10,030 bases of DNA from a virus (lineage: Duplodnaviria; Heunggongvirae; Uroviricota; Caudoviricetes): the IMG/VR virus record IMGVR_UViG_2711768072_000012, one strand, 5' to 3'. The translations under genes and the position numbers were made by a program. Shown piece by piece: positions 2,568-10,008 of this stretch (the stretch's first letter is position 1; each line of letters begins with the position of its first letter). The notes under the pieces were generated by a model, which was not told where the DNA came from, ran no database searches, and was given only the letters and a program-made list of their open reading frames with translations.

Positions 2568-2589
2568 AAGCACGGTGTTCGGGGGTTTT

Positions 2590-3552
2590 ATGAGCAGCAA
2601 GCTTCATGGTCTTGTCTGGGAAGGGTGCGCCTTCACCGGCATGATCTTATCCAGGGTGGCGGTTATGGCCCGTCTTGCAGACTACAGCAATGACGAGGGC
2701 GTGTCATGGCCTGCCATTGAAACTATCCGGCGTCAGATCGGTGCAAGAAGTGAATCCACAGTGAAATCGGCTATTGCAGAACTGGCGAAAGAGGGCTGGC
2801 TGACGAAGGAAGAGCGTAAGGTCGGTGGGCGTAATGTAAGCAATATCTATCGACTTAATGTGGAAAAACTCGAAGCAGCTGCGGCGGCGGCGCGTGAGTC
2901 ATATAAACCGAAAAGAAAAATTAGCCCGGCAAAAAATGACCCGTTAACAGTTGACCCGTCAAATATTGACCCCTCAACGGTTGACCCGTCAAATTTTGAT
3001 GGATCAACTGTTGATAAAAAACTGCCGATTAGGGGGGCGATGATTGACCCCGATCCGTCAGTATTAAAACCTGATCCGTCAGATAAAAGATCTTCTTGTC
3101 CGGACGCTTCGCAACCGGACCCGCAGACGGCTGAACAGGATTTTTTAACCCGACACCCTGACGCGGTTGTGTTCAGTGCGAAAAAACGCCAGTGGGGAAG
3201 TCAGGAAGATTTGGTGTGCGCACAGTGGATCTGGGGACGAATCGTGAGTCTTTACGAGCAGGCGGCCAGCTATGATGGCGAGATCACTAGACCGAAAGAA
3301 CCCAACTGGACAGCATGGGCCAATGACGTTCGCACAATGCGGATGCTGGATGGCAGAACTCACAGACAAATTTGTGAAATGTTTGGGCGTCTCCAGCGGG
3401 ATTCGTTCTGGGTAAAAAACATCATGAGTCCGGCAAAACTCCGGGAAAAATGGGATGAACTGGTTATCCGCCTGGGGCGTTCGCCTGCGCAGCGTTGCGT
3501 GAATCACATTTCTGAACCGGACACTGAAATACCGCCGGGATTCAGGGGGTGA
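2590..3552 (+). CDS. ydaU: YdaU-like replication initiator (lambda O-like replisome organiser) carrying internal iterons
   Basis: N-terminal winged-helix-like region, then a repetitive DPxxx linker encoded by tandem 15-bp DNA repeats. Sits immediately upstream of a DnaC-like loader gene. ATG 2590 chosen over the track's GTG at 2575. Confidence 0.75.
   Translation: MSSKLHGLVWEGCAFTGMILSRVAVMARLADYSNDEGVSWPAIETIRRQIGARSESTVKSAIAELAKEGWLTKEERKVGGRNVSNIYRLNVEKLEAAAAAARESYKPKRKISPAKNDPLTVDPSNIDPSTVDPSNFDGSTVDKKLPIRGAMIDPDPSVLKPDPSDKRSSCPDASQPDPQTAEQDFLTRHPDAVVFSAKKRQWGSQEDLVCAQWIWGRIVSLYEQAASYDGEITRPKEPNWTAWANDVRTMRMLDGRTHRQICEMFGRLQRDSFWVKNIMSPAKLREKWDELVIRLGRSPAQRCVNHISEPDTEIPPGFRG
2936..3025. 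repeat. Six tandem 15-bp iterons (consensus tTGACCCGTCAAnnn): probable prophage origin of replication inside ydaU
   Basis: Units start at 2936, 2951, 2966, 2981, 2996 and 3011; the last two are degenerate. An A-rich tract and four GATC sites (3002, 3052, 3073, 3089) follow. This is analogous to lambda ori inside gene O. Confidence 0.6.
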
Positions 3553-5702: not shown

Positions 5703-6341
5703 ATGAAGATGAAAAACATGTCTGAAGTGTTGACCCAAGAAAAGCTTATTTTTGTTGCCCAGAGACTAAAGGCCCTCGCGCAGTCAGGCCTGACCTATTC
5801 AAAAGACGTCTTTGACAAGGAACGCTATGAAGCCTTGCGTGAAATTGCCGCTGGACTGCTGAGTTCGCAGTTTGATATTAGCCGCAATGATTTGTTTCAT
5901 GTATCGGAAACGGGTTACGCGACGCCCAAAACAGATGTGCGTGCGTTTATCCTGCGTAATAATCGTATTCTGATGGTGAAAGAGGCTGCAGATGGATTAT
6001 GGAGTCTTCCTGGCGGATGGGCAGATGTTGGAGATACACCTTCTGAAGCTGTGCGTCGAGAGGTCGAAGAAGAAACCGGATTAAAAGTCAGAGTGACTAA
6101 ACTATTGGGAGTTTGGGATCGTAATCTTCACGGCCATCCGCCTTTACCCTGGCATGTTTACAAGCTGATTTTTCTCTGTGAAGAAGTAGGTGGCAGCCTG
6201 TCAATCAGCCATGAGTCACTCGATGCTGATTTTTTTGATGTCAACGACCTGCCTGAATTGTCGCTTTCAAGAATTGTGCCTGAGCAGATTGCTGTCAGCC
6301 TGAGAGTAGCGAAAGGTGATGAAAAAACATGGTTTGATTAA
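5703..6341 (+). CDS. NUDIX hydrolase with N-terminal extension
   Basis: Nudix box GGWADVGDTPSEAVRREVEEETGL fits Gx5[E/D]x7REUxEExGU with D at the first acidic position. An ~80-aa N-terminal domain precedes it. Start is ambiguous between ATG 5703, 5709 and 5718; SD is weak and the upstream region is AT-rich. Confidence 0.8.
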   Translation: MKMKNMSEVLTQEKLIFVAQRLKALAQSGLTYSKDVFDKERYEALREIAAGLLSSQFDISRNDLFHVSETGYATPKTDVRAFILRNNRILMVKEAADGLWSLPGGWADVGDTPSEAVRREVEEETGLKVRVTKLLGVWDRNLHGHPPLPWHVYKLIFLCEEVGGSLSISHESLDADFFDVNDLPELSLSRIVPEQIAVSLRVAKGDEKTWFD

Positions 6342-6370
6342 CTTTCTTCTGCAACCATTAAGGAATGGCA

Positions 6371-7009
6371 ATGATATTCAACGCTAAGGGTTTTTTATTC
6401 GATATGGACGGTACGCTGGTTGATTCAACAGCCGTAGTGGAAAGCGTCTGGAGAGATTTTTGTGCAGAATACGGTCTTGATACTCAGGCTGTGATTGCTT
6501 ACGCACACGGGCGGCAAACGATTGATACACTGACGCATTTTATTGGTGCAGGTGAGAAAACCAATAAAATCGCGGCCTCACTCGAAGAGGTTGAAATCAA
6601 CACGACAGAAGGCGTTACTGAAGTAAAGGGGGCCGCTGCACTCTTATCAAAACTGCCACCGGATAGCTGGGCACTTGTCACTTCTGCAGGCAGAATGCTT
6701 GCCGAAAACAGGATGAAAGCGGCTAATCTCCCCTTACCCATAGTAATGGTGTGTGCAGAAGATGTAATGACGGGAAAACCAAGTCCCGAGGGTTACATCA
6801 AAGCAGCTTTGGCTTTGGGCCTTGAGCCTGGTGAATGCGTGGTATTTGAGGATGCATCTGCGGGTATAAAAGCAGGGCTGGCAAGTGGAGCTTCGGTAAT
6901 AGCTGTTCAGCCTGACGCTCTGGGATCATCTGAAGCCCATGCCGTCAGCGAACTGTCTGACATTATGGTCAAGATTTCCGGAGAACGTTTCAATATCATC
7001 TGTGGTTAA
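6371..7009 (+). CDS. HAD-superfamily hydrolase (beta-phosphoglucomutase/phosphatase-like)
   Basis: HAD motifs: FDMDGTLVDS (motif I), VTSAG, TGKPSPEGY (Lys motif) and FEDASAGIKAGLASGA. ATG 6371 is preferred because AAGGA at 6360-6364 gives a 6-nt spacer; the track start is 6365. Lies 23-29 nt after the NUDIX stop. Confidence 0.8.
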   Translation: MIFNAKGFLFDMDGTLVDSTAVVESVWRDFCAEYGLDTQAVIAYAHGRQTIDTLTHFIGAGEKTNKIAASLEEVEINTTEGVTEVKGAAALLSKLPPDSWALVTSAGRMLAENRMKAANLPLPIVMVCAEDVMTGKPSPEGYIKAALALGLEPGECVVFEDASAGIKAGLASGASVIAVQPDALGSSEAHAVSELSDIMVKISGERFNIICG

Positions 7010-7398: not shown

Positions 7399-7439
7399 GG
7401 CTGCGGGTGCTTGAGGCTATCTGTCTCAGGCATGAACAC

Positions 7440-7530
7440 CAAAGGCAGATAGAGAAAAGCCCCAGTTAACATTACGCGTCCTGCAAGACGCTTAACATTA
7501 ATCTGAGGCCATATCTATGCTCTACACACG
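7440..7530 (-). ncRNA. sok: predicted Sok-like antisense RNA region (approximate bounds)
   Basis: Inferred only from hok/sok locus architecture: the antisense RNA is normally complementary to the mok leader and start. Minus strand around 7530-7560 has a weak TTGCCT-17-TAACCT promoter-like pair. Ends are not determined. Confidence 0.3.
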
Positions 7531-7729
7531 TAGGTTAGCCTCTTACGTGCCGAAAGGCAAGGAGAAGCAGGCTATGAAGCAGCAAAAGGCGATGCTAATC
7601 GCCCTGATCGTCATCTGTTTAACCGTCATTGTGACGGCACTGGTAACGAGGAAAGACCTCTGCGAGGTACGAATCCGAACCGGCCAGACGGAGGTCGCTG
7701 TCTTCACAGCTTACGAACCTGAGGAGTAA
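7517..7729 (+). CDS. mok: mok-like upstream reading frame, here in frame with hok
   Basis: ATG at 7517 opens a 70-codon frame that runs into and through hok in the same frame. The leader resembles the mok leader of hok/sok loci. Confidence 0.35.
   Translation: MLYTRRLASYVPKGKEKQAMKQQKAMLIALIVICLTVIVTALVTRKDLCEVRIRTGQTEVAVFTAYEPEE
7574..7729 (+). CDS. hok: Hok/Gef family type I toxin (51 aa)
   Basis: MKQQKAMLIALIVICLTVIVTALVTRKDLCEVRIRTGQTEVAVFTAYEPEE has the Hok TM segment and the conserved TRKxLCE...R.G..EVA.F.AYE pattern. By recollection it is closest to HokD/RelF. SD AAGGAG at 7559-7564 with a 9-nt spacer. Confidence 0.85.
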   Translation: MKQQKAMLIALIVICLTVIVTALVTRKDLCEVRIRTGQTEVAVFTAYEPEE

Positions 7730-7797
7730 GAGACCAGGCGAGGGAGAAATCCCTCGCCACCTCTGATGTGTCAGGCATCCTCAACGCACCCGCACTT

Positions 7798-7820
7798 AAC
7801 CCGCTTCGGCGGGTTTTTTA
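7798..7820 (+). terminator. intrinsic terminator (UUCG tetraloop hairpin + T6) ending the hok transcript
   Basis: TAACCCGCTTCGGCGGGTTTTTT: stem CCCGC/GCGGG, extendable to 7 bp, with a TTCG loop and six Ts. Confidence 0.7.
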
Positions 7821-7867
7821 TTGGTTGACAAAATTATGAATATGCACCAATATCTTGGTTGACAAAA
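7821..7867 (+). promoter_or_regulatory. Two direct copies of TTGGTTGACAAAA (each containing a TTGACA -35 hexamer): candidate promoter/operator of the downstream cassette
   Basis: Identical 13-mers at 7821-7833 and 7855-7867, 34 bp apart, between the hok terminator and the first cassette gene. Confidence 0.4.
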
Positions 7868-7902
7868 GTCGTTTTTTGCACGGATTAGGCGGAGAAGTGT
7901 CT

Positions 7903-8496
7903 ATGCAGAACCATCCATTCCCTTGGGAGTTCTTTCCTGAGTTAACAGAGGAGCGTTTAACCATTATAGCTGAGGAGTTGCTCAGGATACAGGATATTAC
8001 TCATGAGTTATTGTCATCGCCCTATGATGATAATTACACTCGTGGTGGTTGTACATTTGGGCGTCAGCGGCAGGCGTTGCTACAAATGTGCGTACGAAAG
8101 ACATATGACTGGTTAAGACTACTTAATCCTGGCATGGATCTTACGTTTTCAATTGGGAATGTCCCTATTCGTTTCTTTACTGATGACGCAGATAACCCCA
8201 AGAAACGCGGTTTTTTCAAAAGAAATGATGCTGATCGACTCTTTGAGTCAGAGGAGACTACTCCAACTATGCATCGCTTTGTGGTTGAAAAGCCTGAATT
8301 TGAAGGCGAGGGTGGTAGAGTCATTTTTAATGGCTATAACGTGTTTGGTGAGATCGTGTCAACTTGGACATATGGTGCGGACCGTGTTGTTATGCTGAAC
8401 TCTGTCGATGATGTACCTCCAGCACCGGTACCTATCGAACTAGAACCTATCAGTGCGTCTAAGACTGAGAAGGAAAAGAAACAAAATAGCAAATAG
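7903..8496 (+). CDS. uncharacterised protein (~197 aa), upstream partner of the HTH-peptidase; candidate effector/toxin
   Basis: ATG at 7903 with GGAG at 7891-7894 (8-nt spacer); the track's 7855 start is TTG inside the repeat. Acidic, no TM segment, no catalytic motif recognised, with a Pro/Lys-rich tail. Stop lies 10 nt before the next gene. Confidence 0.65.
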   Translation: MQNHPFPWEFFPELTEERLTIIAEELLRIQDITHELLSSPYDDNYTRGGCTFGRQRQALLQMCVRKTYDWLRLLNPGMDLTFSIGNVPIRFFTDDADNPKKRGFFKRNDADRLFESEETTPTMHRFVVEKPEFEGEGGRVIFNGYNVFGEIVSTWTYGADRVVMLNSVDDVPPAPVPIELEPISASKTEKEKKQNSK

Positions 8497-8506
8497 TGGG
8501 TGAAAT

Positions 8507-9628
8507 GTGTTTAACGGTACTAATTTAAGACTTGCTCGTCTGTATCACGAGCTATCTCTGGAGCAGGTTGCTGAGAAGGTTGAAAAAACACGCCAGTATG
8601 TACAGCGACTGGAGTCTGGTTCAGCTACTCCATCCCCAGAGCTTATAAATAAATTAGCCGAGGTTTTGCGCGTGAAGCCCGCCTTTTTCGAAGGGCAGGA
8701 ACATTCTCCTGTTAATGAAGAGATTGTACATTTTCGTAAACGCGCCTCGACAAGGATGTCAACGAAGCTATCAACACTCGCTAAGGCTGAGTTTTATCGT
8801 CGTTTTATTGATGTATTTGAAGATAACCTTAATTTGTCACCTGTTCGATTTCCTGAATTTCGTGTCCATACACAAGAAGATATCGAGCGAGCGGCAGAAA
8901 AATGTCGTATTGAGTGGGGCTTAGGCTTTGGCCCAATTGAAAATATGACTCGCCTTGCCGAGAAACTTGGGGCGTTTGTTACTTCATTTGACTCCGTTTC
9001 GGATGAAGTAGATGCACTGTCTGTTCCTCTGCGAAGGCCTTTTATTGTTCGAAATACAGCTAAAAATTCACCTTGTAGGCAACGCTTTGATATTGCTCAT
9101 GAGGTTGCCCATTTGATTCTTCATGAAGGAATTTCTACTGGGGATAGATTAACTGAATCCCAGGCAAACCGTTTTGCCTCTGCTCTGTTGCTTCCCAGAA
9201 CGTCGATGGCGAAATATTTTCCAAGACCTGTGGGGGGGAGGATAAATTGGCAGGGACTAAGCCAATTTAAGTTGACATGGAAAGTAAGTAAGGCTGCCAT
9301 TGTTTACAGGGCTCATCAATTAGGACTTTTGACTGATGAGCAGTACAGAACTGCATTTATGGGGTTGAAACGGAAAGGGGAAGCTATTGATGAAAAAGAA
9401 GATTATCTAATCCCTCATGAGCGTCCTGAGTTATTCCGTCGGGCTTTATCGTTTTTATTTGAAGAGTTAGGATACGACCCACAGCGTATAGCTGATGAAA
9501 TGGATATAGAAGTGGACATTTTTTATGAGTTAGTAGGAGATGATCTTCCTGCGGTTCATGAACTGCCAGGAAGTGGTGATGTTGTTTCACTACAATCTTA
9601 CCGAACTCTTAGAGGCAAAATTCACTAG
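8507..9628 (+). CDS. XRE-family HTH fused to ImmA/IrrE-type (M78, COG2856-like) zinc metallopeptidase (373 aa)
   Basis: N-terminal HTH (LSLEQVAEKVEKTRQYVQRLESGSATPSPELINKLAEVL). Zinc-binding HEVAH in IAHEVAHLILHE followed by ESQANRFASALLLP, the typical ImmA/IrrE signature. GTG start at 8507 with GGGTG upstream. Confidence 0.85.
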   Translation: MFNGTNLRLARLYHELSLEQVAEKVEKTRQYVQRLESGSATPSPELINKLAEVLRVKPAFFEGQEHSPVNEEIVHFRKRASTRMSTKLSTLAKAEFYRRFIDVFEDNLNLSPVRFPEFRVHTQEDIERAAEKCRIEWGLGFGPIENMTRLAEKLGAFVTSFDSVSDEVDALSVPLRRPFIVRNTAKNSPCRQRFDIAHEVAHLILHEGISTGDRLTESQANRFASALLLPRTSMAKYFPRPVGGRINWQGLSQFKLTWKVSKAAIVYRAHQLGLLTDEQYRTAFMGLKRKGEAIDEKEDYLIPHERPELFRRALSFLFEELGYDPQRIADEMDIEVDIFYELVGDDLPAVHELPGSGDVVSLQSYRTLRGKIH

Positions 9629-9631
9629 GCA

Positions 9632-9654
9632 TAACCCGCTTCGGCGGGTTTTTT
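9632..9654 (+). terminator. intrinsic terminator identical to the one at 7798-7820
   Basis: TAACCCGCTTCGGCGGGTTTTTT, a 23/23 identical copy, 3 nt after the cassette stop. Confidence 0.7.
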
Positions 9655-9729
9655 GTTTTACGTATTCTGGTTTACAATCTACAGGCCAGCCTGAACAACT
9701 GGCACCTGCTGCGCCAGCAGAGAAAGACG

Positions 9730-10008
9730 ATGGCGCACAATACCAAATCACACAATTCTGATAATTCAGCTGTCTTTGCCAGCAGGCACGGGCGGCGTTC
9801 CCGCACATTCAAATCTGATTGGTACCAGCATCCCCCATGTACTGAAGAACAAGCTGAATGGCTAATTCAGTGCTACCGCAGACACGGATACGAGATTAAG
9901 AAAGCCCTCAGCCTCGATTATCGTCACTGGATAATCTCCGTCAGGCTTCCTTACTCTGAACGCCCACCGCGTCCGTCCCGCACATTCCAGCAACGCATCT
10001 GGAGGTAA
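9730..10008 (+). CDS. hypothetical basic protein (92 aa)
   Basis: ORF after the second terminator with a weak SD. Contains an internal repeat (RRSRTF / RPSRTF). Its stop overlaps GGAGG (10001-10005) followed by GTG at 10010, which may start the next gene running off the window. Confidence 0.35.
   Translation: MAHNTKSHNSDNSAVFASRHGRRSRTFKSDWYQHPPCTEEQAEWLIQCYRRHGYEIKKALSLDYRHWIISVRLPYSERPPRPSRTFQQRIWR

Follow-up and report, generated by a model that had tools for sequence, protein, structure and literature searches.

Known systems related to the locus

The moron concept of lambdoid phages (HK97 and HK022; definition from PMC3594210) describes extra DNA that lies between genes adjacent in relatives, has a lower GC content and carries a function of benefit to the host. 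These properties are shared by a two-gene RosmerTA cassette in the 10,030 nt virus sequence IMGVR_UViG_2711768072_000012 (Caudoviricetes, IMG/VR), the whole of which is referred to here as the window. The cassette appears to end in a factor-independent terminator of its own (positions 9632–9654), and a promoter of its own is predicted from the sequence. Classical morons are thought to have been joined illegitimately. Here, by contrast, the terminator of the moron is the same as that of the preceding unit, a hok/sok toxin-antitoxin locus, and the right junction lies inside the shared sequence. The slot behind hok also holds a whole series of alternative morons.

A second related system is the promoter and stem-loop element (PeSL) of T4-type phages, a composite conserved over ~100 bp, where recombination between repeats has been proposed to account for gain and loss of genes (PMC2839356). 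In both systems terminator stem-loops flank variable non-essential genes, and the difference between relatives is one unit, the absence of which leaves one copy behind. The composite ~100-bp repeat is not present here; only a hairpin of 19–23 nt is shared, and the sequences following it differ. The hairpin is also not specific to one phage group. PeSLs, for which mini-circles have been described, belong to the T4 hyperplastic region, whereas the present locus is in a temperate lambdoid prophage.

Relaxed homologous recombination by Rad52-like recombinases in lambdoid phages (PMC3945230) has in common with the locus an exchange at short identities between collinear genomes and defective prophages. 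However, the exchange measured in that work took place over hundreds of bp of diverged homology, and the present one would involve a lone ~20-bp terminator. Minimal efficient pairing segments quoted there are 23–27 bp for Red-beta and 31–34 bp for RecA; the repeat of 19–23 nt is at the lower edge of the Red-beta value. The defence hotspots of P2 and P4 (PMC9122126) likewise have a fixed position between conserved genes and alternative defence or toxin-antitoxin cargos, but the position described here is between hokD and ORF92/ydfU in Rac/Qin-like lambdoid prophages. A limited literature search found no description of a hok-adjacent hotspot or of terminator-mediated moron exchange in lambdoid phages, which is weak evidence for novelty. 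The cargo is known, and the terminator-bounded slot architecture works like PeSL shuffling.

The entry of morons and defence genes into phage genomes is debated, with random illegitimate joining plus selection on one side and recombination at short conserved linkers on the other. The locus provides a natural series in this respect: hok with its terminator as a conserved anchor, empty sites in the thousands, five or more terminator-bounded cargos, many flanks for the same cargo, and a breakpoint in a 19-nt hairpin common to donor and recipient. From these comparisons, hok and RosmerTA are probably stacked morons that were joined or reshuffled by short-homology crossovers in the shared terminator.

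The repeated terminator hairpin

The 23-mer TAACCCGCTTCGGCGGGTTTTTT, termed T below, is found as two exact copies in the window:

7797–7819, + strand: left copy of T, exact 23-mer with a terminator-like score; predicted intrinsic terminator of the hok transcript
9632–9654, + strand: right copy of T, exact 23-mer with a terminator-like score; predicted terminator of the cassette itself and right recombination junction

The copies are 1835 bp apart, start to start, and are identical over 23 nt, or over 26 nt if one mismatch is allowed. Beyond them the downstream sequences are unrelated. No third copy was found in the window with up to 3 mismatches allowed, and 200 dinucleotide-preserving shuffles of the window gave no match (0/200). 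A repeat finder shows T to be the sole long dispersed direct repeat in the window besides the iteron-like repeats of the replication gene. An intrinsic terminator is called at each copy, its 7-bp stem (AACCCGC/GCGGGTT) carrying the loop TTCG and leading into a T-run. Folded within 50 nt of sequence, the hairpins have energies of about -14 to -15.5 kcal/mol. The original prediction, made from the sequence of the window, gave the right copy and the 23/23 identity correctly, but its position for the left copy (7798–7820) is one base off. It also described the ~1.8 kb between the copies as the two-gene cassette with its promoter-like repeats, and the 1812 bp indeed contain nothing else.

The hok/sok unit upstream

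The module upstream of the left copy consists of the following features:

7405–7579, + strand: hok/sok leader region, start of the hok module (Rfam sok RF01794: 114.7 bits, E 3.6e-26, with the gathering score at 59)
7517–7729, + strand: mok/hok reading frame (Pfam HOK_GEF, E 2.9e-23), with a hokD-type toxin coding sequence from the ATG at 7574
7779–7793, + strand: hok mRNA 3' fold-back element, CCTCAACGCACCCGC, complementary to GCGGGTGCTTGAGG at 7404–7417, as read from the sequence

A Hok/Gef open reading frame (ORF), an overlapping mok frame and a sok region are all present, as in type I toxin-antitoxin loci of the hok/sok kind, and the orthologous 156-nt coding sequence is annotated as hokD in RefSeq for the Ec-U5 prophage and others. 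By analogy with established hok/sok biology, the segment at 7779–7793 would be the 'fbi' element. It sits immediately upstream of the left terminator, which for this reason can be taken to end the hok transcript, as had been proposed. In the hok loci of plasmid R1 and phage 933W, BLAST coverage suggests that homology stops before or at the start of T.

The RosmerTA cassette

The segment between the two copies of T has these features:

7825–7881, + strand: putative promoter/operator region of the cassette, two TTGACAAA-N10-TGCAC units 34 bp apart (7825–7847 and 7859–7881)
7903–8496, + strand: rmrT, RosmerTA toxin component, 197 amino acids (aa) (PADLOC RmrT PDLC03929, E 5.5e-93, model positions 1–197 of 198)
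8507–9628, + strand: rmrA, RosmerTA antitoxin, 373 aa (PADLOC RmrA PDLC03943, E 4.3e-201, model positions 1–368 of 370)

The two genes are co-oriented and 10 nt apart, rmrT being first. RmrA contains an XRE-type helix-turn-helix (HTH) domain, HTH_3, at residues 7–61 and a Peptidase_M78 domain (ImmA/IrrE metallopeptidase) at residues 151–269, both from Pfam, and the RmrT protein matched no Pfam family. RosmerTA are phage defence systems in which variable toxins are paired with an antitoxin that has a protease domain (PMC10440598). The cassette shares with them two adjacent co-oriented genes, an antitoxin with HTH and ImmA/IrrE domains and full-length PADLOC matches, and shows no structural difference. 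It appears to be an ordinary member of this already known system, with a presumed protective activity. GC content of the cassette is about 42–45% (about 43% overall) compared with about 50–52% in the hok and ORF92 windows, a modest difference.

The first TTGACAAA unit has a perfect -35 hexamer TTGACA, and a CAATAT hexamer (CAnnAT) is 17 nt downstream; this combination is conserved in 13 loci of several genera. Both TTGACAAA...TGCAC units, with the identical 34-bp spacing, precede rmrT in 12 other loci, from Pectobacterium, Klebsiella, Yersinia, Photorhabdus, Providencia, Pantoea and Enterobacter. The region 7825–7881 may represent the promoter and an operator for the HTH domain of RmrA. A reading of these repeats as part of an insertion signature is rejected, since they are cassette DNA that is kept in 12 other loci.

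Empty sites and distribution

Downstream of the right copy are:

9655–9729, + strand: spacer of the backbone, located directly behind the one terminator of empty sites; includes TACAAT (9673–9678) and the conserved GCCAGCCTGAACAACTGGCACCTGCTGCGCCAGCAG (9685–9720)
9730–10008, + strand: gene for a 92-aa conserved hypothetical protein (ORF92), first gene of the downstream backbone, from the ORF list

Among 5426 complete E. coli genomes, 23 carry the cassette; identity is at least 99% in every case, and both flanks are those of the window (23/23). In 50,697 deposited phage records it was not found; the best coverage is 31% and includes flanks only. Empty sites, in which hok is followed by a single T and the sequence from 9655 on, had been suggested as a check of the insertion, and they were found in E. 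coli TUM1880, in phage Evi and in ~2100–2500 of the 5426 E. coli genomes. The sequence of TUM1880 is that of the window minus one 1835-bp unit. A synthetic junction, made by taking this unit out of the window, matches it in one piece with 97.6% identity, and the two agree exactly through T and for 27 nt beyond it, a stretch that holds the window-specific allele GTTTTACGTATTCTGG. In phage Evi and the chromosome LR883006, likewise, one terminator separates hok from the downstream spacer. Coverage of at least 80% is reached in 2138 of the E. coli genomes for a 103-bp empty junction and in 2501 for a synthetic one of 169 bp. These data support a presence/absence polymorphism of the cassette at exactly this point.

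Two E. coli genomes, UMNF18 (NZ_AGTD01000001.1) and 401651 (NZ_CM129040.1), have a filled prophage with hok, T, RosmerTA and T, plus another prophage with the empty arrangement of hok and T. A single cell of these strains thus holds the substrates for an exchange between terminators.

Other cargos in the slot

The cassette type of the window is referred to as RosA and a distant RosmerTA type as RosB; numbers with the prefix L designate compared loci. A different cargo between two copies of T, also proposed as a check, was found repeatedly. At least four other cargos lie behind hok with a second T: RosB, Phd/Doc, a 130-aa lipoprotein, and a pair of an HTH protein and an ImmA-like peptidase. All are co-oriented, and their right T runs from its first base into sequence that elsewhere follows a lone T. 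RosB is found in 237 genomes; compared with the proteins of the window, identity is 43% for RmrA and 24% for RmrT, and there is no nucleotide similarity between RosA and RosB outside promoter and terminator. The RosA unit of the window and the RosB units of L019, L137 and L138 are each exactly 1835 bp from terminator to terminator, and this equal length is probably a coincidence. Phd/Doc is behind hok in 125 genomes. The HTH and peptidase pair is from L105, an IMG/VR contig, where the slot (178–1016) encodes two separate proteins, an HTH protein of 119 aa and an ImmA-like peptidase of 158 aa with HExxH; after them, no clear gene is seen over ~330 bp. The pair may be related, in split-gene form, to HTH-peptidase modules of defence or regulation.

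A given cargo can be found next to different flanks. Doc with its T adjoins at least seven right flanks, three of which also directly follow a lone hok T. A 100%-identical RosA cassette is found on two backbone alleles, and RosB is found on rem-type and ORF92-type flanks. Together with the alternative cargos, these combinations support the proposal that terminator-bounded cassettes are exchanged as units. In E. coli O104:H4 (L133), hok, T, Phd/Doc and T are followed by a reverse-oriented HTH/RelE pair in a stacked arrangement. In RM10042 (L009) the same pair comes straight after hok and its single terminator, so that the Doc unit is a precise add-on in L133 as well.

Other cargos have no second T. 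These are opposite-strand cargos (HTH-RelE, ParDE), rem and short inserts. They start right after the left T and end at a second recurrent junction, GCCAGCCTGAACAACTGG, at the functional boundary GCCAGCCTGAAC. In L008, L010, L018, L019 and L023 such cargos rejoin the backbone at GCCAGCCTGAACAACTGGCACCTGCTGCGCCAGCAG (window 9685–9720), and each brings its own -10-like hexamer just before it (TACAAT, TATACT, TATAAT or CAATAT).

Close copies of RosA, of RosB (at least 97%) and of Doc (at least 94%) were not found away from hok. Outside hok contexts there are only diverged relatives of the three, with at most 93% aa identity. The interval from hokD to ORF92/ydfU in Rac/Qin-like prophages is a place to seek new defence or toxin-antitoxin cargo.

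Origin of the second terminator copy

A scan of IMG/VR with the exact 19-mer core of the hairpin gave at least 120 loci; among the matches listed, 25 are linked to hok by BLAST and 95 are unrelated to hok. These 95 are in unrelated contexts and come from many environments. A hairpin specific to the hok locus is rejected on this basis. Because most of the listed matches are in unrelated contexts, the hairpin can be regarded as a convergently common terminator, and identity of the two copies alone is no proof that one was derived from the other. In related prophages the distribution is different. Across 44 hok-bearing loci (388 kb), T with at most one mismatch is at the end of hok in 40 cases, at the end of a cargo in 15 and elsewhere in 1, so that a random scatter is rejected there (55/56 at hok or cargo ends). 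The original prediction had named a generic terminator scattered without relation to cargo boundaries as evidence against it; T is generic in IMG/VR, but such a scatter is not seen at the hok loci.

The cargo families, too, have the hairpin as their own. Relatives of RosA in Yersinia and Klebsiella, and those from IMG/VR with 75–77% aa identity, have no hok nearby and end in aT-CCCGCTT(C/T)GGCGGG-Atttttt, with the core CCCGCTTCGGCGGG. Those in Enterobacter and Pectobacterium have similar GC-rich end hairpins on other cores. The closest non-hok RosA relative, L350 (89% aa identity), ends in GAACCCGCTTCGGCGGGTTTATG. Outside hok contexts, Doc relatives end with the full 23-mer, and RosB relatives keep the stem but differ in the loop; within the hok slot, TACG replaces TTCG as the loop of one RosB variant. 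Since RosA relatives without hok end in the same core, the right copy in the window is, as read from these sequences, the ancestral terminator of the cassette and not a duplication made by insertion. The original interpretation of the identical copies as an insertion signature is not upheld in this respect, given also that the motif is generic. The case is a lesson for annotation in that identical terminators around a cassette need not mean an insertion scar.

This evidence bears directly on a target-site duplication, in which a transposase or integrase entered the hok terminator and duplicated 23 bp. Direct repeats do flank the insert and the empty sites have a single copy, as such an event would produce. 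However, the cassette codes for rmrT and rmrA only, with no transposase or recombinase gene detected in it by the ORF list, Pfam or PADLOC, and the right copy travels with the cassette in non-hok contexts. The length and sequence of the repeat vary by cargo: it is 23 nt here and 20 nt for Doc, the left copy is degenerate for the lipoprotein cargo, and the RosB variant with loop TACG faces a left copy with TTCG. Transposition with target duplication is rejected on these grounds, and site-specific insertion as a whole is extremely improbable.

Paired identical or near-identical hairpins also surround gene units in prophages that have no hok (L259, 3037/5048; L324, 1774/3624; L266, 582/2999). In L324 a RosB-like cassette is between two T-like hairpins, behind an unrelated gene for a 213-aa membrane protein. 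Phage records L001–L003 have a short reverse-strand ORF, over or just downstream of the hairpin, with the label 'mobile element protein'. The label probably arose as an artefact of annotation and is not evidence of a mobility gene.

Junctions and proposed mechanism

The junctions were mapped by a three-way alignment of the window with L350, which has the cassette without hok, and TUM1880, which has hok without the cassette. At the right junction the window tracks L350 up to the hairpin and TUM1880 from the hairpin on, and 19 nt, AACCCGCTTCGGCGGGTTT, are common to all three. Judged from the alignment, this is the pattern expected of a crossover within short shared homology. The proposal that the cassette inserted at, or recombined through, the hok terminator agrees with the right junction, but the left junction has no signature of homology.

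The mechanism favored here, with moderate confidence, is as follows. The segment 7820–9654 would be a self-contained moron with its own promoter and operators, rmrT-rmrA and its own intrinsic terminator, situated behind an autonomous hok/sok, and both units would use a very common GC-clamped UUCG hairpin terminator. A crossover in the ~19–23 nt common to the T of the cassette and that of hok would join the cassette to the backbone and set the cassette T directly before the sequence that otherwise follows hok. For example, a genome with hok-T-cargo-T-X and one with hok-T-Y, exchanging at the cargo T and the lone T, would give hok-T-cargo-T-Y. A single crossover should suffice because lambdoid genomes are collinear. 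Reciprocal pairing of non-allelic terminator copies would delete the cargo. Exchange of this kind at short terminator homologies would therefore lead to common empty sites and to many combinations of cargo and flank. The pathway could be of the phage Red-beta/RecT type or RecA; a related prophage that bears the cassette is annotated with a large 3'-5' exonuclease beside dicB, as in Rac, i.e., with Rac-like recombination genes. In a lysogen, hok/sok and RosmerTA would run from their own promoters, and each terminator would insulate the downstream ORF92-ydfU-rusA-Q genes from read-through.

Several observations weigh against short-homology crossover in the terminator. At the left junction the window tracks TUM1880 through the T-run and L350 from GGTTGACA on, with no segment shared, and no T-like hairpin is found upstream of the promoter in L350. 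At least one junction may for these reasons be illegitimate; the left junction could be so, or it could come from an unsampled donor with a T-like hairpin before the cassette, as in L324. Such crossovers are expected to be rare because 19–23 nt is at or below the efficient pairing length of Red-beta. Every close copy found of each cassette is preceded by hok, so that the long homologies of the hok and ORF92 flanks, and not T, could account for much of the spread by ordinary recombination. A consensus promoter scan also gave no call at 7825–7881, since the -10 fits at only 3/6 positions.

Illegitimate insertion plus selection is the classical view of moron origin (PMC3594210). According to this, a cassette with its own T landed by chance after the hok T, identity of the hairpins is convergent and the tidy ends are survivorship. 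The absence of homology at the left junction is in agreement, as are the convergence of the hairpin in many unrelated phages (95 loci not hok-linked, among the 120 matches listed) and its occurrence as an original part of the cassette family. Where a second T is lacking (rem, RelE/HTH, ParDE and others), the cargo likewise starts right after T and ends at the functional boundary GCCAGCCTGAAC. What chance landing does not readily provide is the precision of the outcomes. In every T-bounded family the right T runs from its first base into the backbone with no cargo-derived tail, the left copy is never trailed by residual spacer, and many flanks that in other genomes come after a lone T are found joined, at T, to one and the same cargo. 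Five such outcomes would be rare for random breakpoints in a 75-nt spacer, which is a rough argument with no computed probability. Illegitimate insertion has a small chance of being the explanation, and crossover within the shared terminator is preferred for the right junction.

A circular cassette could produce both junctions in one event. In this Campbell-type, PeSL-like model, the cargo with one T loops out and re-inserts by a single crossover at any compatible T. T-cargo-T in filled sites and a single T in empty sites is the exact structure expected, and five unrelated cargos show it. Further agreement comes from outside hok contexts, where the RosB-like unit of L324 is between T-like hairpins (1774/3624) and L259, from another phage group, has two copies of T ~2 kb apart, and there is a precedent in the PeSL mini-circles of T4-type phages (PMC2839356). 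Yet close copies of the cassettes are never at a non-hok terminator, even though the hairpin is widespread, and a left-hand hairpin is absent from the RosA relative that is nearest among those outside hok contexts. The flanking repeat is also only a 19–23 nt hairpin compared with the ~100 bp composite PeSL motif. Re-insertion from circles is unlikely, though less so than chance landing of the cassette.

Many small defence, toxin-antitoxin and lipoprotein units share an end hairpin of ~20 nt, and stacking or swapping of such units by phage single-strand-annealing recombinases is possible on this account. It is conceivable, but on balance doubtful, that the ubiquitous GC-clamped UUCG terminator acts as a portable recombination linker, at which annealing recombinases stack, swap and excise T-bounded cassettes behind hok, possibly via circles. 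If true, this would be the temperate-phage counterpart of T4 PeSL shuffling and would give sequence-level support to the old 'linker' model of modular phage evolution. The linker idea becomes directly testable with simple phage crosses.

Downstream backbone and other genes of the window

The 92-aa protein encoded by ORF92 matched no Pfam family. Its gene has a 19-nt internal repeat (9792–9810 and 9969–9987) that encodes a repeated R-x-S-R-T-F peptide. Related prophages continue after ORF92 with DUF968/ydfU, rusA and Q, according to the annotated neighbours.

The genes of the window represent the early region of a Rac/Qin-like lambdoid prophage of E. coli: DUF1391, YdaT, an O-like HTH protein with iterons, a DnaC-like ATPase, DUF1627, DUF977, NUDIX and HAD. 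Four tandem 15-bp iteron-like repeats with the core TTGACCCGT are at 2916–2990, within the O-like HTH_36 gene (2575–3552), and are probably the replication origin of the prophage. The genes for a NUDIX hydrolase (5703–6341) and a HAD-family hydrolase (6365–7009) adjoin each other just upstream of hok. The Ec-U5 prophage, which has the same cassette, has DUF551 genes in place of this pair, and because of this difference the stretch 5703–7009 represents another variable cargo block.

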